Source: a virus
Taxonomy: Duplodnaviria > Heunggongvirae > Uroviricota > Caudoviricetes
Length of the DNA stretch: 37,681 nucleotides
Direction: 5' to 3' (one strand)
IMG/VR virus record: IMGVR_UViG_2541047945_000005
Part shown: positions 1 to 37,681 of the stretch, one piece after another
How the letters are laid out: the number at the start of each line of letters is the position of its first letter
Position numbering within the stretch: the first letter of the stretch is position 1
Notes under the pieces: model-generated
Seen by the model: only the letters and a program-made list of their open reading frames with translations
What the model was told of the DNA's origin: nothing
The model's database searches: none
Program-made: the position numbers and the translations under genes

Positions 1-56
1 TAAAAATACTCCCTTTTGAGTGGTTAAAGTACTGAGATAATGTGGGGAGGATTTGA

Positions 57-76
57 GAGATAAACGTTGGTTTGGG
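57..76. other. putative serine-invertase crossover site, copy 1 (hix/gix-like)
   Basis: AAACC-AA-CGTTT core (agataaacgTTggtttgggg) at the outer edge of the 38-bp inverted repeat; compared with hix/gix sites from memory. Confidence 0.45.
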
Positions 77-104
77 GGAAGGCTCTGCACTGCCTGTTGG
101 TGTG
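67..104. repeat. inverted repeat IR-a flanking the tail-fibre cassette
   Basis: 37/38 identity to the reverse complement of 602-639; encodes GEGSALPVGVP in-frame in both fibre ORFs. Confidence 0.85.
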
Positions 105-575
105 CCTGTTCCATGGCCCACCGCCACACCGCCAGCAGGCTGGTTAAAGTGCGACGGGCGCGCCTTTACAAAAGAACAATATCCTGTTCTGGCCAGAGTC
201 TACCCGACCCTCCGTCTTCCCGATTTGCGCGGTGAGTTTATCCGTGGATGGGACGACGGGCGCAAAGTTGATACGGGGCGTTCATTGCTAAGTGGTCAGG
301 CTGCAACATTTATTCGTACAGCTTTGCAGGATTATTACGGTTACGATCTGAATACTAATGTCAAAGTAGGTATCGCTTTTGCTACTGCTGATTCTGTTAT
401 AACCGTTGGAAACCCAGCTAATCCTAAAGCAGGAAATAATAGCGATTATGTTCCTGCATCAGCAGATAACTCTATAACGGGTATTCAAAGGACAGCGGAG
501 GATAATTTTACCGGGGCATGGATATCAATGCGCCCCCGCAATGTTGCGTTTAATTACATCGTAAGGGCCGCATAA
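72..575 (+). CDS. tail-fibre C-terminal cassette (tail-collar-like receptor-binding domain); no canonical start, begins inside the inverted repeat
   Basis: Frame opens after a stop at 54-56 and runs through IR-a; GWLKCDG...YP.L...LPDLRGEFIRGWDDGR resembles phage tail-collar domains; stop at 573-575. Confidence 0.6.
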   Translation: MGEGSALPVGVPVPWPTATPPAGWLKCDGRAFTKEQYPVLARVYPTLRLPDLRGEFIRGWDDGRKVDTGRSLLSGQAATFIRTALQDYYGYDLNTNVKVGIAFATADSVITVGNPANPKAGNNSDYVPASADNSITGIQRTAEDNFTGAWISMRPRNVAFNYIVRAA

Positions 576-2059
576 AAACGTTGGTTTAGGAGAAGGCTCG
601 GCACACCAACAGGCAATGCAGAGCCTTCCCCCAAACCAAGGTAATTGAGGACATCTTTTATACTGCCCTTAGCGATAATAGCGCGACCAATAGCTGTAAG
701 GGTTGCCAGCGCTGCGCGGTCTGCTCCGGTAAAATAAGGCAACCGATCTGCTGCAGTGGCAAGTCCTGCCAGAGCAGTGAGCGTGGCATCTGCCGGTTGT
801 TTTCCGTTTGCCAGATCGTATGCAGCCTTGACCGCTTTCGGTGTGGCGGCCAGTATTTCAGACGTGCTGTTGATGGCACTGCTCAATTGTATGGTGCCTT
901 TTGCCGTCAGCGAGGCAGCAGGCACTCCCGTTATCTGACTCCACGGGTGAGTGTGGCTGACGGGCGCCTTGCCGGCTGCAAGGTCGTATGCAGCCTTGAC
1001 CGCCTTCGGCGTGGCAGCCTCAGTTTCTGATTGACTGTCCGTGGCGCTGCTCAGTTGTACGGTGCCTTTTGCCGTCAGCGAGGCAGCAGGCACTCCCGTT
1101 ATCTGACTCCACGGGTGAGTGTGGCTGACGGGGGCCTTGCCGGCAGCCAGGTCATATGCAGCCTTGACGGCCTTTGGTGTGGCGGCCAGCGTTTCAGAGG
1201 TGCTGTTGGTGGCACTGCTCAGTTGTACGATCCCTTTACGGGTCGTTGTTGCATCCTGGGCTGTGTATTTTCCCCGGGCCAGATCATACGCGATTTTCAC
1301 AGCCTTCGGCGTGGCAGCCTCAGTTTCTGATTGACTGTCCGTGGCGCTGCTCAGTTGTACGGTGCCTTTTGCCGTCAGCGAGGCAGCAGGCACTCCCGTT
1401 ATCTGACTCCACGGGTGAGTGTGGCTGACGGGGGCCTTGCCGGCAGCCAGGTCATATGCAGCCTTGACGGCCTTTGGTGTGGCGGCCAGCGTTTCAGAGG
1501 TGCTGTTGGTGGCACTGCTCAGTTGTACGATCCCTTTACGGGTCGTTGTTGCATCCTGGGCTGTGTATTTTCCCCGGGCCAGATCATACGCGATTTTCAC
1601 AGCCTTCGGCGTGGCAGCCTCAGTTTCTGATTGACTGTCCGTGGCACTGCTCAGCTGTACGGTGCCTTTTGCCGTCAGCGAGGCAGCAGGCACTCCCGTT
1701 ATCTGACTCCACGGGTGAGTGTGACTGACGGGTGCCTTGCCGGCTGCAAGGTCGTATGCAGCCTTGACGGCTTTTGGTGTGGCGGCCAGCGTTTCAGAGG
1801 TGCTGTTGGTGGCACTGCTCAGTTGGGTGAACCCCTTAGCTGTCAGTGTCGCGTCCGGGTGGTTACGGGAACGTACGTGTTCAGCCAGTGACTGTGCGGC
1901 TTCCTCCGTTTTTTTCTTCAGCCATTTCGTCCTGTTTGCCAGTTGCCGGGGGGCTCGATTTGATATCCCGTCAGCACCACCCAGAACCGGATCTGATGTC
2001 TCCAGTTGATAGATTTTTTCTTCCCACTTTTCTGTTTCATTCAGGTTTCCCATAATCAA
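554..2059 (-). CDS. tail fibre protein, constant N-terminal and shaft part with tandem repeats; presently ends in a 14-aa stub after the IR
   Basis: 501-aa ORF; repeated ~50/100-aa fibre motifs (TAKGxVQLSSATxSxSET, HTHPWSQITGVP); last gene of the tail operon; ATGA overlap with upstream gene. Confidence 0.8.
   Translation of the reverse strand: MIMGNLNETEKWEEKIYQLETSDPVLGGADGISNRAPRQLANRTKWLKKKTEEAAQSLAEHVRSRNHPDATLTAKGFTQLSSATNSTSETLAATPKAVKAAYDLAAGKAPVSHTHPWSQITGVPAASLTAKGTVQLSSATDSQSETEAATPKAVKIAYDLARGKYTAQDATTTRKGIVQLSSATNSTSETLAATPKAVKAAYDLAAGKAPVSHTHPWSQITGVPAASLTAKGTVQLSSATDSQSETEAATPKAVKIAYDLARGKYTAQDATTTRKGIVQLSSATNSTSETLAATPKAVKAAYDLAAGKAPVSHTHPWSQITGVPAASLTAKGTVQLSSATDSQSETEAATPKAVKAAYDLAAGKAPVSHTHPWSQITGVPAASLTAKGTIQLSSAINSTSEILAATPKAVKAAYDLANGKQPADATLTALAGLATAADRLPYFTGADRAALATLTAIGRAIIAKGSIKDVLNYLGLGEGSALPVGVPSLLLNQRFYAALTM
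573..592. other. crossover-like site, copy 2, with truncated IR homology
   Basis: ataaaaacgTTggtttagga directly after the cassette stop codon; followed by 19 bp of degenerate IR sequence. Confidence 0.3.
602..639. repeat. inverted repeat IR-b at the 3' end of the tail-fibre constant region
   Basis: Reverse complement matches 67-104 (one mismatch). Confidence 0.85.
636..655. other. putative serine-invertase crossover site, copy 3
   Basis: cccAAACCAAGGTaattgag; AAACC-AA-GGT core resembles hixL/gix as I recall them. Confidence 0.45.
790..1825. repeat. tandem 300-bp direct repeats inside the tail-fibre gene
   Basis: 1021-1320 and 1321-1620 are identical; 1621-1825 is a third copy with SNPs; a diverged copy lies upstream. 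Confidence 0.9.
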
Positions 2060-2634
2060 CTGCTCCCGTGGTTATAACTGCCATCATGGATGGCGGTATT
2101 GTTATAGCGAATGGCCACAGACTGATACTCCAGGCTGGCCAGATGGCAGCGGGCCGGTGCAAATGCAGCGAGCGTCTGACGCAGCATCGCGGCCTGATCG
2201 TTAGTAATGGGCTGTTTCAGAATAACGCGATAAACCGCCCAGGCGGCTGCATCTCCATGAACAAACAGTCCGTTATAGCTGCGATTGCCGTCGTAACTGA
2301 GACGACCTGTGCCTTCAATCAGATCCACTTCACCAAAGCCAAAACGGCGGATAACTTCCCGGATTGACCACGGCGTCCCTTTATACCGGTGTAGTTCGAT
2401 GGCTGCTTTTATAAGCATGCGGCGAACATCGTCCGATTCCGCCAGCTCCCAGCCATCGCCAGACAGTGAGAACTGCTCGCCCAGCCATGGCAGCGCAGAA
2501 CTGTCGACGATATCGACGAGAAAGACCATCAGTACGCTCAGGTCGATGTTATCCAGCCGCCCTGCCAGTCTTCCCAGCGTCCTGAGACTGATATCACCCT
2601 CAAGCGGTGGCGGGAGTTGTAATGGCTCAGTCAT
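2056..2634 (-). CDS. baseplate/tail protein (P2 gpI-like, Mu gp48-like)
   Basis: Position between J-like baseplate gene and tail fibre; ATG at 2634 preceded by GTGGAG; ORF track extends to a GTG at 2646. Confidence 0.6.
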   Translation of the reverse strand: MTEPLQLPPPLEGDISLRTLGRLAGRLDNIDLSVLMVFLVDIVDSSALPWLGEQFSLSGDGWELAESDDVRRMLIKAAIELHRYKGTPWSIREVIRRFGFGEVDLIEGTGRLSYDGNRSYNGLFVHGDAAAWAVYRVILKQPITNDQAAMLRQTLAAFAPARCHLASLEYQSVAIRYNNTAIHDGSYNHGSS

Positions 2635-3730
2635 CAGACACTCCACTCATGTTAAGTGTGATCGCCGTACAGTTTGCCCATTCGTTTTCTGCCACCACCC
2701 TCAGTGCCGGTGTCACCAGTTCAACCTGGTACACCCCGGAAACGGACAATGCACTGATAATCTGGCTGGGGACAATATCACGCCCCAGCGTGGCGGCACG
2801 TGATGCCACCCAGTTCTGTATGGCGCTGTTAGCGGCATCTTTTACAGACCTGGCATCCTGATCACGATAGATCGTAATCCTGGCTTCAATGGTGTAATCC
2901 ACCTTCACTGGTGTTTTAGCCCGCACTGTATCAGTGAGTGGCCTGACTTTCTCATCAGAGCAGAAACTCTCTACCAGCGTGAGAACACCGCCGTCCGGCA
3001 GACCGGTACTGAGCAGCGGATACAGATCTACGGTCCCGGGAACCGGGGAAAGCACAGCAACATCGACAATGTTGGGATGGGCCTGCATGGCATGAAAGCG
3101 GTATGCGCCACGGCTTCCGGCATTGGTGAATGACTCCGGGGCCAGCCTGATACGCTCCCGGAGCCTGTCATCGTCTTCCTGTTCTGAACCGCCGGAACTG
3201 GCCGTCAGATTGCTCACCAGCAGGTCGACGTTATCAATCTCATCGAGTAACTGACTGACCTGCGCAGGTTGCCAGCCGTTACCAGCGGTACCGGGTTCGG
3301 TACAGGTGGACGTGACATTGACCAGCAGCAATCCGGCCTTCAGTACCACATCTGTATCGGTGGCAAAAATAACGCTGTCGGAAGCGCTGACGCGGGTGCC
3401 TGCCGGGATCAGCACATCAATGGTCAGTGCCTCATCCACAGAGAACTGAAGTGTGGTGGTGGCAGGCTGCGCGGCAAGGCGGTATACACCAACCAGTTCT
3501 CCGAGGTAATCAATCATCGGCTCTCGTGAAAAGGCGACCAGATTCTGCTTTGCTGCCTCCTGTACCGCAACCCTGACCAGCATTTCGCGATAGGCCCACA
3601 GATCAATCAGCAGACGTTCTGCCTGTGCCGGGTACAGCGTTTTGCCGGTATCCGCTTCATACTTCGCAATCATTTCTGCCGTGATTTTGTCGGCATCGCG
3701 TTCAATAAAATCGGGTTCTGTCAGCGCCAT
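2627..3730 (-). CDS. baseplate J-like protein (Mu gp47-like)
   Basis: 367-aa ORF following the gpW-like gene in the baseplate cluster. Confidence 0.65.
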   Translation of the reverse strand: MALTEPDFIERDADKITAEMIAKYEADTGKTLYPAQAERLLIDLWAYREMLVRVAVQEAAKQNLVAFSREPMIDYLGELVGVYRLAAQPATTTLQFSVDEALTIDVLIPAGTRVSASDSVIFATDTDVVLKAGLLLVNVTSTCTEPGTAGNGWQPAQVSQLLDEIDNVDLLVSNLTASSGGSEQEDDDRLRERIRLAPESFTNAGSRGAYRFHAMQAHPNIVDVAVLSPVPGTVDLYPLLSTGLPDGGVLTLVESFCSDEKVRPLTDTVRAKTPVKVDYTIEARITIYRDQDARSVKDAANSAIQNWVASRAATLGRDIVPSQIISALSVSGVYQVELVTPALRVVAENEWANCTAITLNMSGVSDD

Positions 3731-4068
3731 AGCAACTCCTGAGTCCGGGTCTGTCCGTCTGAGCCTTTCCAGCTCACCCGGAGCGTAAGATGTTCGCCGT
3801 CGACGGCGGGTTTAACTGACATAAGCTGGCAGCGGGGCTCCCAGCGTCGGATGGCATCGACGGATTCGCGCACCACATGCGGAATGGCCCGGTCTACAGG
3901 CCAGTCGATATAAAGATGCAGATTGCTGCCGAACTCCGGGCGATGCGGGTCGCTGCCGCGGGGAGTCCGCAGGATAATTTGAATCGCCTGCCGGATATCA
4001 TCCAGCCCCCGGACAATTTCGCCGGGAGCCTGCAGGGTCGGTTGCCAGAATACTGAGGTTGTTTTCAT
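3721..4068 (-). CDS. baseplate protein, gpW/gp25-like
   Basis: 115-aa ORF, size and position typical of P2 gpW / Mu gp46. Confidence 0.6.
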   Translation of the reverse strand: MKTTSVFWQPTLQAPGEIVRGLDDIRQAIQIILRTPRGSDPHRPEFGSNLHLYIDWPVDRAIPHVVRESVDAIRRWEPRCQLMSVKPAVDGEHLTLRVSWKGSDGQTRTQELLWR

Positions 4069-4098
4069 GGGGGCAGTATTGCCCCCGTGCGGGAACGC

Positions 4099-4122
4099 TG
4101 ATATTAAAGGCGTTTAAAAAGC
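4099..4122 (-). promoter_or_regulatory. conserved late-operon motif, copy 1 (candidate late promoter/activator site)
   Basis: ctgATATTAAAGGCGTTTAAAAAg, one of four aligned copies upstream of minus-strand late operons. Confidence 0.5.
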
Positions 4123-4719
4123 TCAGTGGGAGTGGTGGCTGGAGTTTTCGCCATCAGACAACATACTGCCCGTGGCATGGGCATTCCCTTTAATCTCGAT
4201 ATTGCCATGGATGGTCGCGGTAACACCTTCACCACCAGAACCCGCCATGCCTCCTTCGTAAATCAGCTTACCCCTGACACGCAGATCTCCGGTAAGTTCG
4301 GTTTCCGGTGCGTCAATCGTGGCTTTCTGTGTTTTCAATACCACATCAGCACCACACTCAATGACAATATGCTCAATGCCGCCCCGGATGATCAGAGTGT
4401 GCGTCTTCCGGTTGTAGCTGTACTCTGCACCATCAGCAAACCGGGTTCCCCGGATATTTTTGTCACTGAACGGTGGTTTATCGACGTCTGAATACACCGC
4501 GCCCAGAATAACACCATCCTCGCCGTTGGCATCGAGCAGCACCTCAACCTGCTCCCCCACGTCAGGGAGCCAGTAATCTTTGTTATCCTGGGTATTGCGC
4601 TGCAGCACGTTAAGCCAGTTTGTGCGCAGGTTATCGCATTCAGGCAGACGAACGCGGGCCTGAACCCTGTCGGCATCAACGGCACTGACCGTACCGACCT
4701 GACGAGTGACACCAGTCAT
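4123..4719 (-). CDS. baseplate spike/assembly protein, P2 gpV-like (Mu gp45-like)
   Basis: 198-aa ORF with His-rich C-terminus; ATGA overlap with upstream gene. Confidence 0.65.
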   Translation of the reverse strand: MTGVTRQVGTVSAVDADRVQARVRLPECDNLRTNWLNVLQRNTQDNKDYWLPDVGEQVEVLLDANGEDGVILGAVYSDVDKPPFSDKNIRGTRFADGAEYSYNRKTHTLIIRGGIEHIVIECGADVVLKTQKATIDAPETELTGDLRVRGKLIYEGGMAGSGGEGVTATIHGNIEIKGNAHATGSMLSDGENSSHHSH

Positions 4720-15475: not shown

Positions 15476-16606
15476 TTACAGGCAGCGTGCGACAGCAGCC
15501 TCATAGCTGATGCCTTCTTTTTTGGACAGGGCCACTGCTTTCTGATGCAGGGCCAGACGCTCAGGATCGGCTTCCGCAAACTCTGCCACATCCACCTTCA
15601 CCGTGTCGCCGACACGCTCTTTTGTGGCCTGTTCGGCGAAATTCATCACCGGCTCCCCGTCGGAGAGCAATGAACGAAAGGCGGTGGCCAGCGGTGTGCG
15701 GCTTTCCCCCTCAGCAAACTCCACCGGCTTGTCGCCACCGGCGACGGCATCCAGCAGGGCAACCACCACGGAGGAGGCGCGGGGAGCCAGACGGCCCTCT
15801 GCGACCAGTTTTTCTGCAAAGGCCACATTGTCCTTATGCAGTTGCTCCTGTCTGACCTGTGCATCACGCGCATCGCGATCAGCAGCCTGCTGCTTCAGGC
15901 GGCGGTTCTCCTCCTGAAGGGTTTCAATCTCTTCTTTTGTCATCGATGATTCCTCGTTACTTGCGGAAGACGGCCCCGGGCCTGTCTCACTGAATTGTGC
16001 ACCTGCTGCATCCTGCGACAGTGTGTCGCGGTACGCCTCTTCGCGCAGACTGTTGAGCTGCCATTCCGGCAGGACTTTTTCTGCCTCGTCCAGACTGAAG
16101 CGGGCGATCAGAAAATCGCGCAGCTTTCCCCACAGGGAGGCATTCGTGATGGCCTGCCAGTCGGCGAACTCCACCACACCTTCTTCCTGCTCACTGAAGG
16201 ACACCTGTTTCAGCCCCTTGATGGAAGGTGGCTGTGCCCCGAGAAAGCCCACATGGCGAAGGTAGAGCACGCCGGGCTTCGGATTGGACGGTGAATCCGG
16301 GAGGTAGAAAGAGGCGGACACTTTTTTGAATCGTCCGTCGGTGACCATCTCAGCAAACTGCGGGTCCAGCTGGGCAGGCTCTGCCATCAGATCGACGCCG
16401 CTGAGCGACAGGGCTTTCACCCAGCCCCACGCCGGGTCTTCCGTTCTGGGATGACCAATCACGAGTGGTGCTTCATGGACGGACGGGTCATAGGCTTTCA
16501 CGCAGGCGGCAAGATCGTCTGGCGTGAACGGCAGTTTTTTGCCGTGCATATCGGTATGAGTACCGGCTTTAAAAGTAAGCGTAAACTGACCGCCGTATGT
16601 AGCCAT
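15476..16606 (-). CDS. head protease/scaffold protein (Mu I-like); native 5' end separated by the IS66 insertion, current start codon lies inside the IS inverted repeat
   Basis: 376-aa ORF with coiled-coil C-terminal half; first 11 codons (MATYGGQFTLT) are IS sequence; native ATG at 19131 is in frame once the IS and one duplication copy are removed. Confidence 0.65.
   Translation of the reverse strand: MATYGGQFTLTFKAGTHTDMHGKKLPFTPDDLAACVKAYDPSVHEAPLVIGHPRTEDPAWGWVKALSLSGVDLMAEPAQLDPQFAEMVTDGRFKKVSASFYLPDSPSNPKPGVLYLRHVGFLGAQPPSIKGLKQVSFSEQEEGVVEFADWQAITNASLWGKLRDFLIARFSLDEAEKVLPEWQLNSLREEAYRDTLSQDAAGAQFSETGPGPSSASNEESSMTKEEIETLQEENRRLKQQAADRDARDAQVRQEQLHKDNVAFAEKLVAEGRLAPRASSVVVALLDAVAGGDKPVEFAEGESRTPLATAFRSLLSDGEPVMNFAEQATKERVGDTVKVDVAEFAEADPERLALHQKAVALSKKEGISYEAAVARCL
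16567..16574. repeat. 8-bp target-site duplication (left copy) CTTTAAAA
   Basis: Identical to 19107-19114, directly flanking the IS termini. Confidence 0.85.
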
Positions 16607-16659
16607 CAGACGAGAATTGGTAACTTAGACGCCCATCTGATATAGACGGACATCTAAGT

Positions 16660-17085
16660 ATGGAATTACAGGACTGGCGAAAAGAACCTCGTAAAAACTA
16701 TTCGAATGAATTCAAACTTCGTATGGTGGAACTGGCATCACAACCTGGAGCTTGTGTTGCACAGATTGCACGTGAAAATGGCGTCAATGATAATGTTATT
16801 TTCAAATGGCTCAGGCTCTGGCAGAACGAAGGGCGTGTTTCGCGGCGTCTTCCGGTAACGACCTCTTCTGACACTGGCGTTGAATTATTACCTGTAGAAA
16901 TAACGCCGGATGAGCAGAAAGAACCTGTGGCGGCCATTGCGCCGTCTTTATCCACTTCCACTCAGACCAGAGTCAGTGCCAGTTCCTGCAAGGTGGAATT
17001 CCGTCACGGTAACATGACGCTGGAAAATCCATCGCCAGAGCTGCTCACAGTGTTGATCCGTGAACTGACCGGGAGGGGAAGATGA
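16660..17085 (+). CDS. tnpA: IS66 accessory protein TnpA (orf1)
   Basis: 141 aa, first ORF of the IS66 triad. Confidence 0.8.
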   Translation: MELQDWRKEPRKNYSNEFKLRMVELASQPGACVAQIARENGVNDNVIFKWLRLWQNEGRVSRRLPVTTSSDTGVELLPVEITPDEQKEPVAAIAPSLSTSTQTRVSASSCKVEFRHGNMTLENPSPELLTVLIRELTGRGR

Positions 17086-17432
17086 TCTCACTCCCATCAG
17101 GTACCCGTATCTGGCTCGTTGCCGGCGTTACCGATATGCGTAAATCCTTCAACGGACTGGGAGAACAGGTACAACATGTGCTGAATGATAATCCCTTCTC
17201 CGGTCACCTGTTTATCTTCCGTGGCCGACGGGGTGACACCGTCAAAATTCTTTGGGCTGATGCTGATGGTCTGTGCCTGTTCACCAAACGCCTGGAGGAA
17301 GGCCAGTTTATCTGGCCTGCGGTACGTGACGGCAAGGTATCCATTACCCGCTCGCAACTGGCAATGCTCCTCGATAAGCTGGACTGGCGTCAGCCAAAAA
17401 CATCCAGCCGTAACTCACTGACAATGTTGTAA
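17082..17432 (+). CDS. tnpB: IS66 TnpB (orf2)
   Basis: 116 aa, ATGA overlap with tnpA. Confidence 0.8.
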   Translation: MISLPSGTRIWLVAGVTDMRKSFNGLGEQVQHVLNDNPFSGHLFIFRGRRGDTVKILWADADGLCLFTKRLEEGQFIWPAVRDGKVSITRSQLAMLLDKLDWRQPKTSSRNSLTML

Positions 17433-17462
17433 AAAACTCCTGACCGCATTATAAAAACGGTC

Positions 17463-19076
17463 ATGAGTCAGAAATACCTCATTCGCATCGCAGAGCTGGA
17501 AAGGTTGCTCTCTGAGCAGGCTGAAGCCCTCCGTCAGAAAGACCAGCAACTGAGTCTGGTTGAAGAGACGGAAGCCTTCCTGCGCTCTGCACTGACACGT
17601 GCCGAAGAAAAGATCGAAGAAGATGAACGGGAAATAGAACATCTGCGGGCTCAGATAGAAAAACTGCGCCGGATGCTGTTCGGTACCCGTTCTGAAAAAC
17701 TGCGTCGTGAAGTTGAACTGGCTGAGGCTCTGCTGAAACAACGTGAACAGGACAGCGATCGTTACAGTGGGCGGGAAGACGATCCTCAGGTTCCCCGCCA
17801 GTTGCGACAGTCGCGCCATCGTCGTCCGTTACCGGCACACCTTCCCCGTGAAATACACCGCCTGGAGCCAGAAGAAAGCTGTTGCCCGGAGTGTGGCGGT
17901 GAGCTGGATTATCTGGGGGAAGTCAGCGCTGAACAGCTGGAACTGGTGAGCAGTGCCCTGAAAGTGATCCGCACAGAACGGGTAAAAAAAGCCTGTACAA
18001 AATGTGACTGTATTGTTGAAGCACCGGCGCCGTCCCGCCCGATAGAGCGTGGTATCGCGGGCCCCGGATTACTTGCCCGCGTGTTAACGGGAAAATACTG
18101 CGAACATCTGCCACTGTATCGTCAGAGTGAAATCTTTGCCCGCCAGGGTGTCGAACTGAGCCGGGCCTTACTCTCCAACTGGGTTGACGCGTGCTGCCAG
18201 TTAATGACACCGGTGAATGATGCCCTGTACCGTTATGTAATGAACACCCGCAAGGTTCACACTGATGACACACCGGTAAAGGTACTGGCACCGGGTCAGA
18301 AAAAGGCGAAAACAGGGCGTATCTGGACGTATGTCCGGGATGATCGCAATGTGGGTTCGTCATCTCCTCCAGCGGTCTGGTTCGCGTACTCGCCGAACCG
18401 GCAGGGGAAACACCCGGAGCAACACCTCCGCCCCTTCCGGGGTATCCTGCAGGCGGATGCGTTCACAGGTTACGACAGGTTGTTCAGTGCAGAACGTGAA
18501 GGTGGTGCACTGACAGAAGTTGCGTGCTGGGCCCATGCCCGGCGAAAAATCCACGATGTATACATCAGCAGCAAAAGTGCGACGGCAGAAGAAGCCCTGA
18601 AGCGAATCAGTGAACTGTACGCCATCGAGGATGAAATACGGGGATTACCGGAGTCAGAGCGTCTTGCCGTCAGGCAGCAGCGAAGCAAAGTGTTACTGAC
18701 GTCGCTGCATGAATGGATGGTGGAGAAGAATGGTACGCTGTCGAAAAAATCCAGACTGGGCGAAGCGTTCAGCTATGTACTGAATCAGTGGGATGCCCTC
18801 TGTTATTACAGTGATGACGGTCTGGCGGAGGCGGATAATAATGCTGCGGAAAGAGCGCTTCGTGCAGTCTGTCTCGGAAAGAAAAACTTTATGTTCTTTG
18901 GCAGCGATCACGGCGGCGAGCGTGGAGCACTGTTGTACGGGCTGATCGGCACCTGCCGTCTGAACGGTATCGATCCGGAAGCGTATCTGCGCCATATCCT
19001 GAGCGTACTGCCGGAATGGCCTTCCAACCGAGTTGACGAACTCCTGCCATGGAACGTAGTACTCACCAATAAATAA
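17463..19076 (+). CDS. tnpC: IS66 transposase TnpC (orf3)
   Basis: 537 aa; N-terminal coiled coil, CxxC...CxxC zinc motif. Confidence 0.85.
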   Translation: MSQKYLIRIAELERLLSEQAEALRQKDQQLSLVEETEAFLRSALTRAEEKIEEDEREIEHLRAQIEKLRRMLFGTRSEKLRREVELAEALLKQREQDSDRYSGREDDPQVPRQLRQSRHRRPLPAHLPREIHRLEPEESCCPECGGELDYLGEVSAEQLELVSSALKVIRTERVKKACTKCDCIVEAPAPSRPIERGIAGPGLLARVLTGKYCEHLPLYRQSEIFARQGVELSRALLSNWVDACCQLMTPVNDALYRYVMNTRKVHTDDTPVKVLAPGQKKAKTGRIWTYVRDDRNVGSSSPPAVWFAYSPNRQGKHPEQHLRPFRGILQADAFTGYDRLFSAEREGGALTEVACWAHARRKIHDVYISSKSATAEEALKRISELYAIEDEIRGLPESERLAVRQQRSKVLLTSLHEWMVEKNGTLSKKSRLGEAFSYVLNQWDALCYYSDDGLAEADNNAAERALRAVCLGKKNFMFFGSDHGGERGALLYGLIGTCRLNGIDPEAYLRHILSVLPEWPSNRVDELLPWNVVLTNK

Positions 19077-19106
19077 GCGTCAATACGGTGCTCCGTTGAC
19101 GCTTAC

Positions 19107-19114
19107 CTTTAAAA
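19107..19114. repeat. 8-bp target-site duplication (right copy) CTTTAAAA
   Basis: Identical to 16567-16574. Confidence 0.85.
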
Positions 19115-30892: not shown

Positions 30893-32662
30893 ATGAATGC
30901 TGCCCTGACTGAACGACTGGTTTATGTCGCCCGCGCGGCACGTGACGCGGGGCATGGTAAACGCGGTGCAATATACGACGCTGCCTGTGCTGAACTTGGC
31001 ATGTCCCGCGCCACTCTGCTGCGCAGGCTGAAGGAGGTCTCTGTGACTGATAAACGCAAAAAACGCGCTGATGCCGGACGCAGCGCCCTGACCCGCGACG
31101 AAGCCGCGCTGATATCTGCCACACTGCGTGAGGCCACCCGCAAGAACGGTAAACGCCTCTATTCCATCGCAGATGCAGTGGAAACCCTGCGGGCTAACGG
31201 CTTTATCACCGCAGGCAGAACAGATGAAACCACCGGTGAGTTTTTCCCGTTGTCTGAAGATGCCATCAGCCGTGCTCTGCGTAACTATGGCCTGCACCCG
31301 GAACAACTGGATGCTCCTGCACCGCATACCGAAGTGGCCAGTCTGCACCCCAATCATGTCTGGCAGATTGACGCCTCACTCTGCACGCTTTACTACCTGA
31401 GCAATGGACATAAAGGGCTGCAGGTGATGGACAGCGCGAAGTTCTACAAGAACAAGCCCGCTAACCTTGCCCGTATCGCCAGTGACCGCGTGTGGAGTTA
31501 CGAGATTACCGACCATGCCAGCGGCTGGATTTACGTTGAGTATGTGACGGGCGCGGAATCAGGTGAGAACCTGTGTTCTGTGCTTATCAACGCCATGCAG
31601 GAGCGTGGCGGCGCAGACGTGCTGCACGGCGTGCCAAAAATACTCTATCTCGACCCCGGCTCGGCAAACACCGCGGGTATGACGAAAAACATGTGCCGCT
31701 CACTGGGCATCGACCTGATAGCGCACAAGCCGCATAACGCCCGCGCCACCGGACAGGTGGAAAAGGCGCGGGACATTATCGAACGCAAGCTGGAGCCGGG
31801 TCTGAAGTTCCGGCCGGTTCACAGTCTGGAAGAACTCAATGCGCTGGCCGCGAAATGGCGCAGCCACTTTAACGCCACGGCTGTTCACAGCCGCCACGGT
31901 AAAACCCGCACGGATATCTGGCTGAAGATTACTGCTGAGCAGCTGAAAAAAGCGCCTTCCGTTGAGGTATGTCGTGAACTGGCTGTGGCGGCACCAGAAC
32001 TCCGCAAAGTCACGCCAAAACTTCGTGTCTCGTTCCGGGGCACTGAATTTGACGTATCAACGGTACCGGGCGTACTGGTCGGTGAAAAACTGATGATTAC
32101 CCGTAACCCGTGGCGCAGCGATGTGGCACAGGTGGTTCTGACCGGTGAGGACGGCCACGAGACGTTCTTCCTGGTCGAAGAAGTCAGAAAGAACGAGTTT
32201 GGCTTTGCTGAAGGCGCGGCGGTATTTGGCGAAAGTTACAAAGCCCTGCCGGAAACCCCGGCGCAGATGGCGGCAAAAGAAACCGAAGCGCTGGTCACCG
32301 GTACAGACAACGCCGCAGATGCAGCTGCCGCACGCAAGGCGAAGGCGCTGCCGTTCGGCGGGCGGCTTGACCCATATAAACATATTGATGACGCCACACT
32401 TCCGGCCTATATGCCGAAGCGAGGTCAGGCCTCTGACGTACGCGGGCCGCGCACTGAACAACGTCCCATGACTCATGTGGAGGCCGCGAAAGCCCTGCGC
32501 GATAAGTTCAGCGCCGACGGCCTTACCTGGACGCCGGAACATTACCGCCAGTTAACGGCACAGTATCCGGACGGCGTACCGGAAGCCGCACTGGATGAAG
32601 TCATGGCCACGCTGACCACGCCGGCCCGCAGCAGCGTTATCAGCATTGTTAACGGCAACTGA
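30893..32662 (+). CDS. DDE transposase (Mu A-like, integrase-core fold)
   Basis: N-terminal HTH, WQIDAS ... YLDPGS ... QVEKA candidate DDE triad; followed by an AAA+ partner. Confidence 0.75.
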   Translation: MNAALTERLVYVARAARDAGHGKRGAIYDAACAELGMSRATLLRRLKEVSVTDKRKKRADAGRSALTRDEAALISATLREATRKNGKRLYSIADAVETLRANGFITAGRTDETTGEFFPLSEDAISRALRNYGLHPEQLDAPAPHTEVASLHPNHVWQIDASLCTLYYLSNGHKGLQVMDSAKFYKNKPANLARIASDRVWSYEITDHASGWIYVEYVTGAESGENLCSVLINAMQERGGADVLHGVPKILYLDPGSANTAGMTKNMCRSLGIDLIAHKPHNARATGQVEKARDIIERKLEPGLKFRPVHSLEELNALAAKWRSHFNATAVHSRHGKTRTDIWLKITAEQLKKAPSVEVCRELAVAAPELRKVTPKLRVSFRGTEFDVSTVPGVLVGEKLMITRNPWRSDVAQVVLTGEDGHETFFLVEEVRKNEFGFAEGAAVFGESYKALPETPAQMAAKETEALVTGTDNAADAAAARKAKALPFGGRLDPYKHIDDATLPAYMPKRGQASDVRGPRTEQRPMTHVEAAKALRDKFSADGLTWTPEHYRQLTAQYPDGVPEAALDEVMATLTTPARSSVISIVNGN

Positions 32663-32672
32663 GGAGGGATAC

Positions 32673-33839
32673 ATGCTGGTACTGAAGCAGCAACTGAAAG
32701 AGGCCCGTATTCCACAGGCGGTGGTGGCGAGAGCTGTCGATGTTTCTGAGGCCACGCTGGCCCAGATTGTGAATCATAACGCGTGGCCCCGCACCAGCCC
32801 CGGAGAAGTGCGCCGGCGTCTTGCGTCCTGGCTGGAAAGTCAGGGGATTGATACAACGAAGAGTTTTGATGCTGTACAGGGCGCGGCCACGCCCCGTACA
32901 GCGGGTACCACAGATAAAACGAGCCTCAGTGAGGAAGAGAATATGTTACTCAAAAAACAGGTGTTATTTCCAGCAACCAAAAAAGCGTTTGGTCTTTTCC
33001 GTGACCCGTTCGCCGACGAAGCCATGCAGGGTTCTGATGATGTGTTCACCACTCCGGACATTCGCTACGTGCGTGAGGCGCTGTACCAGACAGCCCGTCA
33101 TGGTGGGTTTATGGCCGTCATCGGTGAGTCCGGTGCGGGTAAATCCACGCTGCGCCGTGACCTGACTGAACGTATCAACCGCGAGAATGCGCCGGTGATT
33201 GTTATCGAGCCATACATCATCGCTATGGAAGACAACGATGTGAAAGGGAAAACCCTGAAGGCAGCAGCGATTGCCGAAGCCATTATCAGTACCATCGCAC
33301 CACTGGAAAGCATCAGACGCAGTCAGGACGCCCGCTTTCGCCAGCTGCATCGCGTCCTGAAAGACAGCAGCCAGGCGGGGTTCAGCCACGTTCTGGTGAT
33401 TGAGGAGGCCCACAGTCTGCCCATTCCGACACTGAAACACCTCAAACGCTTTTTTGAGCTGGAGTCCGGTTTCAAAAAACTGCTGTCCATCGTGCTGATT
33501 GGCCAGCCGGAACTGGCGACAAAACTGTCTGAACGCAATATGGAAGTCCGTGAAGTCGTTCAGCGCTGTGAGGTGGTCGAACTTCTGCCTCTGGACAATA
33601 ACCTTGAAGAGTTTCTGACGTTCAAACTGCAACGGGCCGGTAAACAACTGACGGACATTATGGACGCCAGCGCAGTGGATGCCATACGTGCCCGCCTGAG
33701 CAATCCGGGAAGTCATCGTAAAAATATGGTCAGCCTGCTGTATCCGCTGGCCGTCAGTAACCTGGTAATAGCCGCCATGAATCTGGCCGCTGAAATCGGG
33801 GTTCCACAGGTCAACGCTGACGTTGTCAAAGGGGTTTAA
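32673..33839 (+). CDS. transposition ATPase (Mu B-like AAA+)
   Basis: Walker A GESGAGKST, Walker B VLVIEEAH; GGAGGG RBS; ORF track starts at a TTG at 32646. Confidence 0.75.
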   Translation: MLVLKQQLKEARIPQAVVARAVDVSEATLAQIVNHNAWPRTSPGEVRRRLASWLESQGIDTTKSFDAVQGAATPRTAGTTDKTSLSEEENMLLKKQVLFPATKKAFGLFRDPFADEAMQGSDDVFTTPDIRYVREALYQTARHGGFMAVIGESGAGKSTLRRDLTERINRENAPVIVIEPYIIAMEDNDVKGKTLKAAAIAEAIISTIAPLESIRRSQDARFRQLHRVLKDSSQAGFSHVLVIEEAHSLPIPTLKHLKRFFELESGFKKLLSIVLIGQPELATKLSERNMEVREVVQRCEVVELLPLDNNLEEFLTFKLQRAGKQLTDIMDASAVDAIRARLSNPGSHRKNMVSLLYPLAVSNLVIAAMNLAAEIGVPQVNADVVKGV

Positions 33840-36878: not shown

Positions 36879-37320
36879 ACAACGTCTTATCCAGCTCATT
36901 CATATTGCCCGTAATGAACTGGGTATGGATGAAGACACCTACCGCCAGATGTTACAGGGGCTGACCGGTAAAGCCTCAACCAAAGGAATGGATACCACAC
37001 AACTAAACTGCGTGCTGGAATCCATGAAAAGGAAAGGCTTTCGCGTTAAGCCTGCCGGAAAAGCCAGCTCCGGTTTACCGCTGGATAACCATCCGCAGTC
37101 CAGGAAAATCCGTGCGCTATGGCTTGAAATGGCTGCTGCCGGCATTGTTCGTGACCGTTCAGAAAATGCATTAGCGCGGTGGATCAAGCGGGAAACGGGC
37201 ATCAGCGCCCTGCGCTGGCTCAATACTGAACAGGCAAGCAGTGTTATTGAGAAACTGAAGAAGTGGCAGCACAGAGCTGCGGGAGTAAAACATGAGCGAC
37301 CTGAATCAGTTTCGAAGTAA
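36868..37320 (+). CDS. GemA-like protein (Mu gp16-like)
   Basis: Position directly upstream of Mor; AAAGGAG RBS. Confidence 0.5.
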   Translation: MMTKQRLIQLIHIARNELGMDEDTYRQMLQGLTGKASTKGMDTTQLNCVLESMKRKGFRVKPAGKASSGLPLDNHPQSRKIRALWLEMAAAGIVRDRSENALARWIKRETGISALRWLNTEQASSVIEKLKKWQHRAAGVKHERPESVSK

Positions 37321-37681
37321 AGGGCCGGAACTCCTGGTGGAACTGGCACAGCATACCTCTGAGACCGTTCGCGAGATTATTGATATTGAGCCCGCAATTG
37401 CCGACCAGATTGGTCAGGCCGTCGCGAACCGCATGATGCAGGTCTGGGGCGGGCAAAACGTTTATTTCCCGATGGGCATGGTATGGAAGGTCAGTCAGCG
37501 CGACCGGGAAATCTTCAGGGAGTTTAACGGACGTAACCACCATGAACTGGCCCGCAAATTTGGTGTTTCGCTTCAGTGGGTCTACAGCGTGGTTAAGCGG
37601 GTAAGAAAAGAAGAACTGGATCGGATGCAGGGCAAGCTATTTGCTGATGAACCCGATGTAGATACGGAGAAAAAAGAGTAA
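37292..37681 (+). CDS. mor: Mor-like middle-operon transcriptional activator
   Basis: 129 aa (the length of Mu Mor), C-terminal HTH (ELARKFGVSLQWVYSVVKR), last gene of the early block. Confidence 0.65.
   Translation: MSDLNQFRSKGPELLVELAQHTSETVREIIDIEPAIADQIGQAVANRMMQVWGGQNVYFPMGMVWKVSQRDREIFREFNGRNHHELARKFGVSLQWVYSVVKRVRKEELDRMQGKLFADEPDVDTEKKE

Follow-up and report, generated by a model that had tools for sequence, protein, structure and literature searches.

The left end of the window (the whole stretch of 37,681 nucleotides that was analysed) very probably carries a Gin/Pin-type invertible segment that switches the C-terminal, receptor-binding tip of a tail fibre, and the flipped isomer of this segment exists in nature. 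The region is the tail-operon end of a transposable (Bcepmuvirus-like) E. coli prophage, and the window is a degenerate derivative of a multiple-inversion system, without a working multi-cassette set. Searches of the region against phage databases gave few matches. The nearest record among phages, PhiKM (Bcepmuvirus), holds an incomplete genome in which a record junction interrupts the fibre, and so was uninformative on the switch. The prophage in the window contains an IS66-family insertion (16575-19106), and an IS3 element is present in the corresponding prophage of the genome designated L001; in the IS66-carrying prophage the switch may no longer matter to any virion.

Fibre gene and silent tip cassette

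The tail-fibre gene as presently joined encodes 499 amino acids from its annotated ATG (554-2053, minus strand; WP_021572718.1) and consists of a shaft, a shared head and a 14-aa tail. The shaft (640-2053, minus strand) is constant and common to all isomers, with 300-nt tandem repeats at 810-1877, and seven Phage_fiber_2 repeats were found in the fibre by Pfam. Directly upstream of the fibre lies a gene for a P2 gpI-type baseplate/tail protein (2056-2646, minus strand; Pfam Tail_P2_I and annotation), which places the locus in the late tail operon. The first-pass annotation had the fibre reading through the right-hand repeat and stopping 14 codons later, and this is what is seen: the minus-strand open reading frame (2059/2053 to 554) crosses the right arm and ends ...GVP-SLLLNQRFYAALTM*, leaving a fibre that has no receptor-binding tip and a 14-aa tail that is out of context.

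On the opposite strand, 72-575 (plus strand, 167 codons) forms a silent cassette, A, encoding a tail-collar receptor-binding tip; its predicted tail-collar-like character was borne out by a match to Pfam Collar (PF07484, E = 6.6e-16). The open reading frame of cassette A begins within the left arm of the repeat, has no start of its own and is read only once fused to the fibre shaft.

Inverted repeats and crossover sites

Inverted repeats do flank the segment, with arms at 64-106 and 600-642 forming a 43-nt inverted repeat in which 41 of 43 positions pair (mismatches at 66/640 and 90/616), the left arm encoding the shared cassette head LGEGSALPVGVP. The repeats had been described as perfect over 38 bp (67-104 and 602-639), which is not the case as 37 of the 38 positions match, the exception being 90/616. 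Exact inverted matching extends over at most 23 nt (67-89); in 100 dinucleotide shuffles of bases 1-3000 the longest such run averaged 10.8 nt and never exceeded 13.

Cores resembling hix/gix sites had been proposed at the repeat edges, and two sites there share the layout of Mu gix, TTATCCAAAACC-TC-GGTTTACAGGAA. Site a (55-80, plus strand) reads GAGAGATAAACG-TT-GGTTTGGGGGAA with its central TT at 67-68, and site b (626-651, minus strand) reads TCCTCAATTACC-TT-GGTTTGGGGGAA on its own strand, giving a central AA at 638-639 on the plus strand. Both are 26 bp, they lie in opposite orientation and their central dinucleotides are identical (cores AAACG-TT-GGTTT for site a and AAACC-AA-GGTAA for site b, compared to AAACC-TC-GGTTT for Mu gix). 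The suggested third site was also confirmed, at 569-594 (site c, plus strand, CGCATAAAAACG-TT-GGTTTAGGAGAA, central TT 581-582), in the same orientation as site a; the stretch 576-604 is a 90% direct copy of 62-90. Inversion between sites c and b was considered and set aside, as that state is absent from the window and from five other loci (L001, L003, L011, L017 and L018) and the two cores lie 57 bp apart. A loop of 57 bp is probably too short for an invertasome.

Naturally occurring isomers

Both orientations were sought and found. Joining window bases 1-66 to the reverse complement of 67-639 and then to 640-4168 reproduces the locus L003 without a single mismatch over 4168 nt. L003 is from E. 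coli LC-1302-2020, where this prophage occupies an identical chromosomal insertion site, and the fibre of L003 is a 640-aa shaft-plus-collar fusion; L001 and L003 are related by an exact inversion and share an identical host flank of 3 kb. The orientation of the window is found in E. coli MMC-J-0105. Metagenome contigs likewise yielded one of each, L017 in the orientation of the window and L018 flipped. The prediction that inversion would fuse the shaft to the tail-collar domain is upheld by the annotated fusion protein itself, the 640-aa shaft-plus-cassette A fibre of L003 and L002, which is present as WP_074441576.1 in several genomes, while the truncated fibre protein WP_021572718.1 was found on 9 contigs.

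The two mismatches between the arms allow the exchange to be mapped. When the window is compared to L003, the flanks retain the 66/640 mismatch whereas the one at 90/616 has moved along with the segment, and so the crossover is confined to 67-89, which includes the TT core; at site a, comparison of L001 with L003 shows the outer half to be fixed and the inner half exchanged. These differences between strains suggest that flipping may be ongoing in the window's own strain. A single insertion site, beside a prpR remnant, was seen in two assembled genomes and in one contig context reaching past the prophage end, and the deletion-bearing locus (described below) was present in only 2 of 5426 complete genomes.

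The adjacent invertase

The invertase gene had been stated to lie outside the window, which is correct, though its ATG abuts position 1. Inspection to the left of this position for a Gin/Hin/Cin-family recombinase, as the first-pass annotation had advised, was made in four sequences (L001, L003, L011 and L018, which are E. coli genomes and a metagenome contig) that match the left end of the window exactly, and revealed an adjoining Gin/Pin-family serine invertase. Its 190-aa open reading frame is transcribed leftwards from an ATG comprising the three bases directly left of position 1; L001, L003 and L011 carry it intact, as does L018 in the portion present there. The spacer from the invertase start codon to the crossover core of site a (1-66) holds the fixed outer half-site GAGAGATAAACG (55-66).

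The protein contains Resolvase (PF00239, 8.2e-51) and HTH_7 (PF02796, 1.3e-12) domains, matches Gin structures 3UJ3 and 4M6F over its full length (E about 1e-93), and is 77% identical to Mu Gin, 76% to PinE of e14 and 86% to the invertase of an EPEC prophage. Catalytic serine S9 is kept. Hin makes its Fis/enhancer contacts through Q151, R154, L155 and basic residues 47, 48 and 51 (PMC3798978), and the residues at these positions in the invertase are K46, R47, K50, Q150, R153 and L154 (offset -1 compared to Hin). The gene adjoining the segment encodes a small serine recombinase with invertase-specific contact residues.

Candidate Fis sites, weakly supported by matches at the level of the consensus, are centred in the invertase gene at positions 30 (6/7) and 78 (7/7) and cover 23-37 and 71-85; they are 48 bp apart, at distances of 97 and 145 bp from the site a centre, the Hin enhancer being roughly 100 bp from its nearest site (PMC3798978). 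Mu gin matches the Fis consensus at the same gene positions, which coding conservation could account for. Invertases of the Gin/Hin/Cin/Pin family need Fis and negative supercoiling for catalysis, and the switch here may depend on Fis and an enhancer. The adjacent invertase is likely to perform the flipping itself; Pin-like enzymes can act in trans. A scan of the invertase/cassette region for sigma-70 promoters and terminators gave nothing above shuffle expectation.

A probable three-cassette ancestor and the scar of a deletion

Relatives of this locus hold three cassettes (A, B with its assembly gene, and C) and three sites. Four such relatives (L002, L004, L005 and L006) represent different isomers with the same invertase, and L002 and L005 each retain three sites with three cassettes, as expected of a multiple-inversion system, which has at least three crossover sites and at least three alternative C-termini; the window has kept three sites but only one intact cassette. 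Relatives free of IS elements include CU39ES-1 and MS20675. Cassette A is 65% identical to B and 61% identical to C. Alignment of the window to one relative isomer, L005, showed that 1558 bp (L005 1228-2785) are missing, and that this deletion took out B, the tail-fibre assembly gene tfa and C. What remains, when the window is aligned to both sides of the L005 gap, is 20 nt of the head of cassette B (583-602, plus strand) and a remnant of the head of cassette C (600-637, minus strand), which is now joined to the shaft and overlaps the right arm (600-642). The deletion junction is a GGC microhomology at 600-602. Cassettes B and C form an inverted repeat of 229 nt with 89% identity and a 1165-nt spacer. 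Site c, identical to L005 1195-1220, marks in intact relatives the point where the tail of cassette A meets the head of cassette B, and the palindrome and third site together (569-637) are the scar of the 1558-bp deletion. The locus had been read as evidence of a past rearrangement or a multi-site shufflon, of which the multi-site relic with a deletion stands, while "shufflon" is a loose fit as the enzyme is a serine invertase. Recombinase-mediated deletion was rejected as the origin of the scar as the junction falls within the cassette heads, 20 and 38 nt in, and off the core dinucleotide.

Site c and the right arm form a quasi-palindrome with a predicted RNA fold of -44 kcal/mol (z = -6.3), and this strong hairpin, followed by a U-run, lies directly after the truncated fibre reading frame. 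No homologue of the Tfa of the relatives was detected by tblastn in the whole window, and tfa was also absent from the 7.2 kb analysed of the flipped-isomer locus L003.

Proposed mechanism of switching

We propose that the invertase would bind the oppositely oriented 26-bp sites a (centre 67-68) and b (centre 638-639) and cut at the central TT/AA dinucleotide, after which rotation of one half of the synapse and religation would flip the roughly 570 bp between the cores. The sites lie inside the coding sequence of a shared peptide, LGLGEGSALPVGVP, and so each flip is in frame and replaces everything downstream of that peptide. In the orientation of the window the shaft is joined to the scar and ends after 14 codons, and in the flipped orientation it is joined to cassette A to give the 640-aa fibre with its tail-collar tip. 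The ancestor probably had three sites and three cassettes (A, B with tfa, and C) and could adopt four isomers, one of them with B facing C as the 229-nt inverted repeat; an illegitimate 1558-bp deletion at the GGC microhomology then removed B, tfa and C, leaving their two heads as the short palindrome at 583-637. The tips probably differ in receptor specificity and the tipless fibre is probably not a working one.

Alternative explanations

RecA-dependent homologous recombination, with the 43-bp inverted repeats as its substrate, could in principle produce both orientations without any site-specific invertase, and the mapping of the crossover just to the 23 identical bases 67-89 is compatible with homologous exchange. 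The same interval holds the gix-like core, however, and an intact Gin-family invertase abuts the segment. A 23-bp stretch is no longer than, and perhaps shorter than, the minimum that RecA needs for efficient exchange. Frequent flipping is seen in culture at the homologous EPEC locus, whose sites are identical (PMC4272514), and we regard the RecA route as very improbable. Misassembly is common for invertible regions and for palindromes, and it had been named as a finding that would undo the whole reading; but the same structure recurs base-perfect in independent complete genomes, drafts and metagenome contigs, and in both orientations, and the chance that the repeats and palindrome are an assembly artefact is negligible.

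Could the repeats instead be a frozen relic, with the segment no longer inverting in the deletion-bearing lineage? The locus is degenerate, having lost two cassettes and tfa, and the prophage has received IS insertions (IS66 in the window, IS3 in L001), but the same deletion scar is found in both orientations (L001 against L003 and L017 against L018), which means that at least one inversion occurred after the deletion, and the invertase reading frame is intact in L001, L003, L011 and the visible part of L018; it is highly unlikely that the segment is frozen. Equally hard to credit is that the tipless orientation is a selected OFF state, the deletion having changed a host-range switch into an on/off tip switch which, for example, limits adsorption or serves the host. 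The derivative does persist, with both states found and the truncated fibre on 9 contigs, and the hairpin and U-run of the scar sit just past the truncated reading frame. Against this, the single insertion site next to the prpR remnant suggests one clonal event over recurrent selection, a junction at a 3-nt microhomology is what an accidental deletion near a long inverted repeat typically leaves, and so few of the complete genomes (2 of 5426) carry the derivative. The Gin/Pin-type tip switch, reduced by a chance deletion, remains our preferred reading.

Relation to known inversion systems

The closest counterpart is the three-site module of a P2-like prophage in EPEC E2348/69 (L015; NC_011601.1 1891695-1893703), for which whole genome sequencing and PCR identified four coexisting variants, and experiments demonstrated three alternative C-termini (Goldberg et al. 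2014, PMC4272514). Its crossover sequences are identical to those of the window (AAACGTTGGTTTGGGGGAAGG, and TTACCTTGGTTTGGGGGAAGG on the shaft side), its homologous collar cassettes share both the head and the RPRNIAFNYIVRAA end with those here, and there is a single tfa. The gene order is also the same (gpI, fibre, cassettes, invertase), with an adjacent invertase that is 86% identical. The two loci differ in that the window's prophage is Bcepmuvirus-like and transposable rather than P2-like, and in that the window has lost two cassettes and tfa, leaving only two states, one of which is the truncated fibre. The "Mu" prophage inversion of the same EPEC strain (L014, PMC4272514) was considered as a homologue and rejected, being a separate, true Mu-type tail module without an adjacent invertase.

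The G segment of Mu resembles the window locus in its adjoining invertase (Gin, 77% identical), in the layout of its 26-bp sites and in the in-frame swap of a fibre C-terminus, but it spans 3 kb with two tips (Sv and Sv'), an assembly gene for each (U and U') and a TC centre, compared to short collar cassettes, most without a chaperone gene, a TT centre and one remaining cassette here. For the P segment of e14 in E. coli K-12, PinE is 76% identical to the window's invertase and the repeat AAACCTTGGTTTGGGAGAAGG (Table S1, PMC4272514) is nearly identical to AAACGTTGGTTTGGGGGAAGG; e14 is a lambdoid remnant with two cassettes, each with a tfa (stfP/tfaP and stfE/tfaE). The R64 shufflon is similar in its multi-site inversion of adhesin C-terminal tips, but it uses Rci, a tyrosine recombinase acting on sfx repeats in pilV, whereas the recombinase next to the window is a serine enzyme, and the window is therefore not a shufflon in the strict sense. 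Min of plasmid p15B, a multiple fibre inversion system, and Cin of phage P1, a simple one (in the work of Sandmeier, Iida and Arber), reportedly use enhancer-dependent serine invertases, which in the multiple case shuffle several fibre C-terminal cassettes at multiple crossover sites; p15B has six sites and many cassettes.

Significance of the locus

Textbooks have long covered the switching of fibre tips by serine invertases, from Mu G, P1 C, e14 P and p15B Min onwards, and the switch in the window is real but ordinary, a degenerate example of an established Gin/Pin-type system; as a homologous three-site locus has already been shown to flip in EPEC, its discovery value is small. It is very unlikely that the one-cassette derivative serves as an ON/OFF phase switch of the receptor-binding tip that a bacterial lineage retains for its function, with A and C folding without a chaperone, as the absence of tfa would require; if true, this would be an ON/OFF switch of a fibre tip as opposed to a host-range switch. 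For annotation, the switch explains the RefSeq "partial" tail protein and the short fibre at this locus. The locus also illustrates module decay, in that a long inverted repeat between facing cassettes has been deleted and one orientation left a dead end, and L001 and L003, as otherwise identical natural genomes, provide a clean before and after pair in which the exchange maps to 23 bp around the predicted core.

Inversion of the fibre segment

A repeat search of the window found inverted arms at 64-106 and 600-642 (43 nt, 95% complementary, spacing 493 nt) flanking a tail-collar cassette (cassette A), as the first-pass annotation had proposed, but its description of the repeats as perfect did not hold, as two of the 43 positions in these arms (66/640 and 90/616) do not pair and the arms it had delimited, 67-104 and 602-639, pair at only 37 of 38. 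The longest exact inverted run was 23 nt (67-89), whereas 100 dinucleotide-shuffled versions of bases 1-3000 gave 10.8 on average and 13 at most, and a direct copy of 62-90 sits at 576-604. Also as annotated, cassette A is a plus-strand ORF (72-575, 167 aa) which starts within the left arm and encodes a collar domain (Pfam Collar PF07484, 6.6e-16), and the minus-strand fibre ORF (2059/2053..554) crosses the right arm to a stop 14 codons on, with the C-terminus ...LGLGEGSALPVGVP-SLLLNQRFYAALTM. This ORF encodes a shaft with seven Phage_fiber_2 repeats, and minus-strand P2-type baseplate genes (gpI, J, W, V and D) lie upstream of it. The shaft region 810-1877 holds about four tandem 300-nt units (78-97% identity), each coding for Phage_fiber_2 repeats, and in related strains fibre lengths vary or annotations are fragmented at this repeat, suggesting copy-number variation or assembly trouble there.

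The recombinant predicted for inversion was built in silico (window bases 1-66, the reverse complement of 67-639, then 640 onwards) and, used as a search query, matched E. coli LC-1302-2020 with identity over all 4168 nt compared. This strain carries the same prophage and invertase at the same insertion point, beside a truncated sigma-54 regulator and yahO, and 3 kb of its host flank is identical to that of E. coli MMC-J-0105, the one colinear 100% match to bases 1-2100 in a megablast of complete E. coli genomes. Its fibre is complete at 640 aa (WP_074441576.1), so that the inverted orientation exists and does fuse the shaft to the collar cassette, as had been predicted. Between the window and LC-1302-2020 the mismatch at 66/640 remains with the flanks while that at 90/616 moves with the segment, and hence the exchange took place somewhere in 67-89, an interval that has the TT core of the crossover site inside it.

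The invertase and its crossover sites

The invertase gene had been expected outside the window, left of position 1, and in MMC-J-0105 it was found there: a 190-aa “recombinase family protein” (WP_000904922.1), transcribed leftward, has as its ATG the three bases preceding window base 1. It has Resolvase and HTH_7 domains, and over its full length it matches the crystal structures of Gin (3UJ3 and 4M6F; E about 1e-93). It is 86% identical to an invertase of an EPEC prophage, with Mu Gin at 77% and e14 PinE at 76%. The catalytic S9 is retained, as are K46, R47, K50, Q150, R153 and L154 (numbering is that of Hin minus one); basic residues and Q, R and L at those positions are uniquely conserved among Fis/enhancer-dependent invertases (PMC3798978). 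Fis matches for an enhancer were at consensus level only.

Oriented so that the fixed flank comes first and the segment side second, the 26-bp crossover sites are a (GAGAGATAAACG-TT-GGTTTGGGGGAA, central dinucleotide at 67-68), c (CGCATAAAAACG-TT-GGTTTAGGAGAA, 581-582) and, on the minus strand, b (TCCTCAATTACC-TT-GGTTTGGGGGAA, 638-639). All three have TT as their core, and their layout is that of Mu gix taken from the Mu genome (TTATCCAAAACC-TC-GGTTTACAGGAA), namely a 12-nt half-site, a 2-nt core and a second 12-nt half-site, which bears out the suggested resemblance to hix/gix sites. Site c repeats site a in direct orientation, an arrangement in which invertases of the Gin/Pin family disfavour deletion. 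The spacing of sites c and b is only 57 bp, and a c-b flip was seen in no sequence compared.

Origin of the degenerate state

In close relatives that carry the same invertase the segment is larger. Reading from the invertase side (R) to the constant shaft (K), CU39ES-1 is R / A+ / B+ tfa+ / C- / K (fibre K-C, 630 aa) and MS20675 is R / B+ tfa+ / C- / A- / K (fibre K-A, 640 aa), tfa being the tail-fibre assembly gene, and 2016C-3878 has two cassettes, R / C+ / tfa- B- / K (fibre K-B, 643 aa). Identity among collar cassettes A, B and C is 61-65%, and they have their first ~70 residues and an RPRN(I/V)AFNYIVRA end in common. The window is identical to the CU39ES-1 isomer except that it lacks bases 1228-2785 of that locus (1558 bp), a stretch covering tfa together with the bodies of B and C; the quasi-palindrome at 583-637 is the remaining heads of B and C. 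The third site and its palindrome had been read as a sign of past rearrangement or of a multi-site shufflon, and this deletion from a CU39ES-1-like isomer accounts for them.

The deletion junction is a GGC found in both parents (window 600-602), 20 nt into the B head and 38 nt into the C head. As this lies away from the crossover core, a recombinase event was rejected as its source and we infer that a long, unstable inverted repeat was lost by illegitimate deletion, the facing B and C of CU39ES-1 forming one of 229 nt (89%, spacer 1165 nt). On the fibre mRNA strand (556-650, minus) the scar is predicted to form a hairpin (about 27 base pairs, -44 kcal/mol, z = -6.3) followed by UUUUUA, with the stop of the truncated fibre ORF a few codons farther downstream, and might by chance work as an intrinsic terminator.

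The scar turned up in two of the metagenome contigs scanned for it, one (L017) in the window orientation and one (L018) flipped, the latter with the invertase ATG 62 bp past the central AA of the site. Both orientations share one scar, so at least one inversion postdates the deletion. The truncated 499-aa fibre is coded on 9 contigs of a large assembly collection; among the three contexts listed, the invertase adjoins the fibre in both that extend beyond it, and in the one reaching host DNA the insertion site is again the same.

The host prophage

The element carrying the switch is a transposable Bcepmuvirus-like prophage, as it encodes an rve transposase (30893-32662), an AAA+ protein (32646-33839) and Mor (37292-37681), its insertion sites vary among strains with host genes truncated at several, and its relative PhiKM is classified as Bcepmuvirus. 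In the left flanks of loci L001-L009 the prophage ends about 80 bp past the invertase gene and abuts a host gene which differs by strain and is often truncated (a sigma-54 regulator next to yahO, irp1, the barA region, yfaL, eamA, phosphopentomutase), as expected of Mu-like transposition; the insertion in irp1 breaks yersiniabactin synthase. An IS66-family element (16575-19106; HTH_Tnp_1 ORF, TnpB_IS66, DDE_Tnp_IS66; terminal inverted repeats GTAAGCG...), with an 8-bp target duplication (CTTTAAAA, 16567-16574 and 19107-19114), sits about 17 nt into a 371-aa late gene of the virion morphogenesis region, so the prophage is probably defective. This element is missing from PhiKM and has 100% identical copies in several lambdoid phages. 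In MMC-J-0105 an IS3-family element (L001 16359-17572) that is absent from the window splits the tape-measure gene, and the window is therefore another member of that lineage.

Relation to known switches and consequences for the fibre

The P2-like prophage of EPEC E2348/69 has an inversion module (Goldberg et al. 2014, PMC4272514; coordinates in its Table S1); PCR verified its three homologous inverted repeats, the coexistence of four variants and a set of three alternative C-termini. Its order is gpI, fibre, collar cassette, opposite-strand tfa, collar cassette, invertase. As this module and the window carry the same crossover sequences (AAACGTTGGTTTGGGGGAAGG; on the shaft side, TTACCTTGGTTTGGGGGAAGG) and homologous cassettes, the window locus is of a known, experimentally validated kind, differing in its host element and its degenerate one-cassette state. 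The e14 repeat in the same table (AAACCTTGGTTTGGGAGAAGG) is nearly the same as the window's. In the true Mu-type prophage of EPEC E2348/69 (NC_011601.1 2749478-2751398) no recombinase gene is annotated beside the invertible fibre segment, which is reported to flip (PMC4272514), presumably inverted in trans by the Pin-like invertase of another prophage.

By combinatorics, the three sites of the intact system give four isomers and three fibre tips, and two of the four were observed (MS20675 and CU39ES-1). The window's derivative has two states, the shaft joined to A, seen complete in LC-1302-2020, and the shaft joined to the scar, the window's own state, which is without any receptor-binding domain and probably gives a non-functional fibre. 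No tfa homologue was left in the window by tblastn. In the cassettes of MS20675, CU39ES-1 and the EPEC P2-like locus, tfa accompanies B only, and tips A and C either fold without Tfa or use a chaperone supplied in trans. The switch that had been annotated is real and correctly interpreted, but ordinary. A selected ON/OFF switch of the fibre tip, or collar tips that need no chaperone, would raise the interest of this locus if true, but such a reading is unlikely, as the deletion apparently arose once, in a single clone, and its junction looks accidental.
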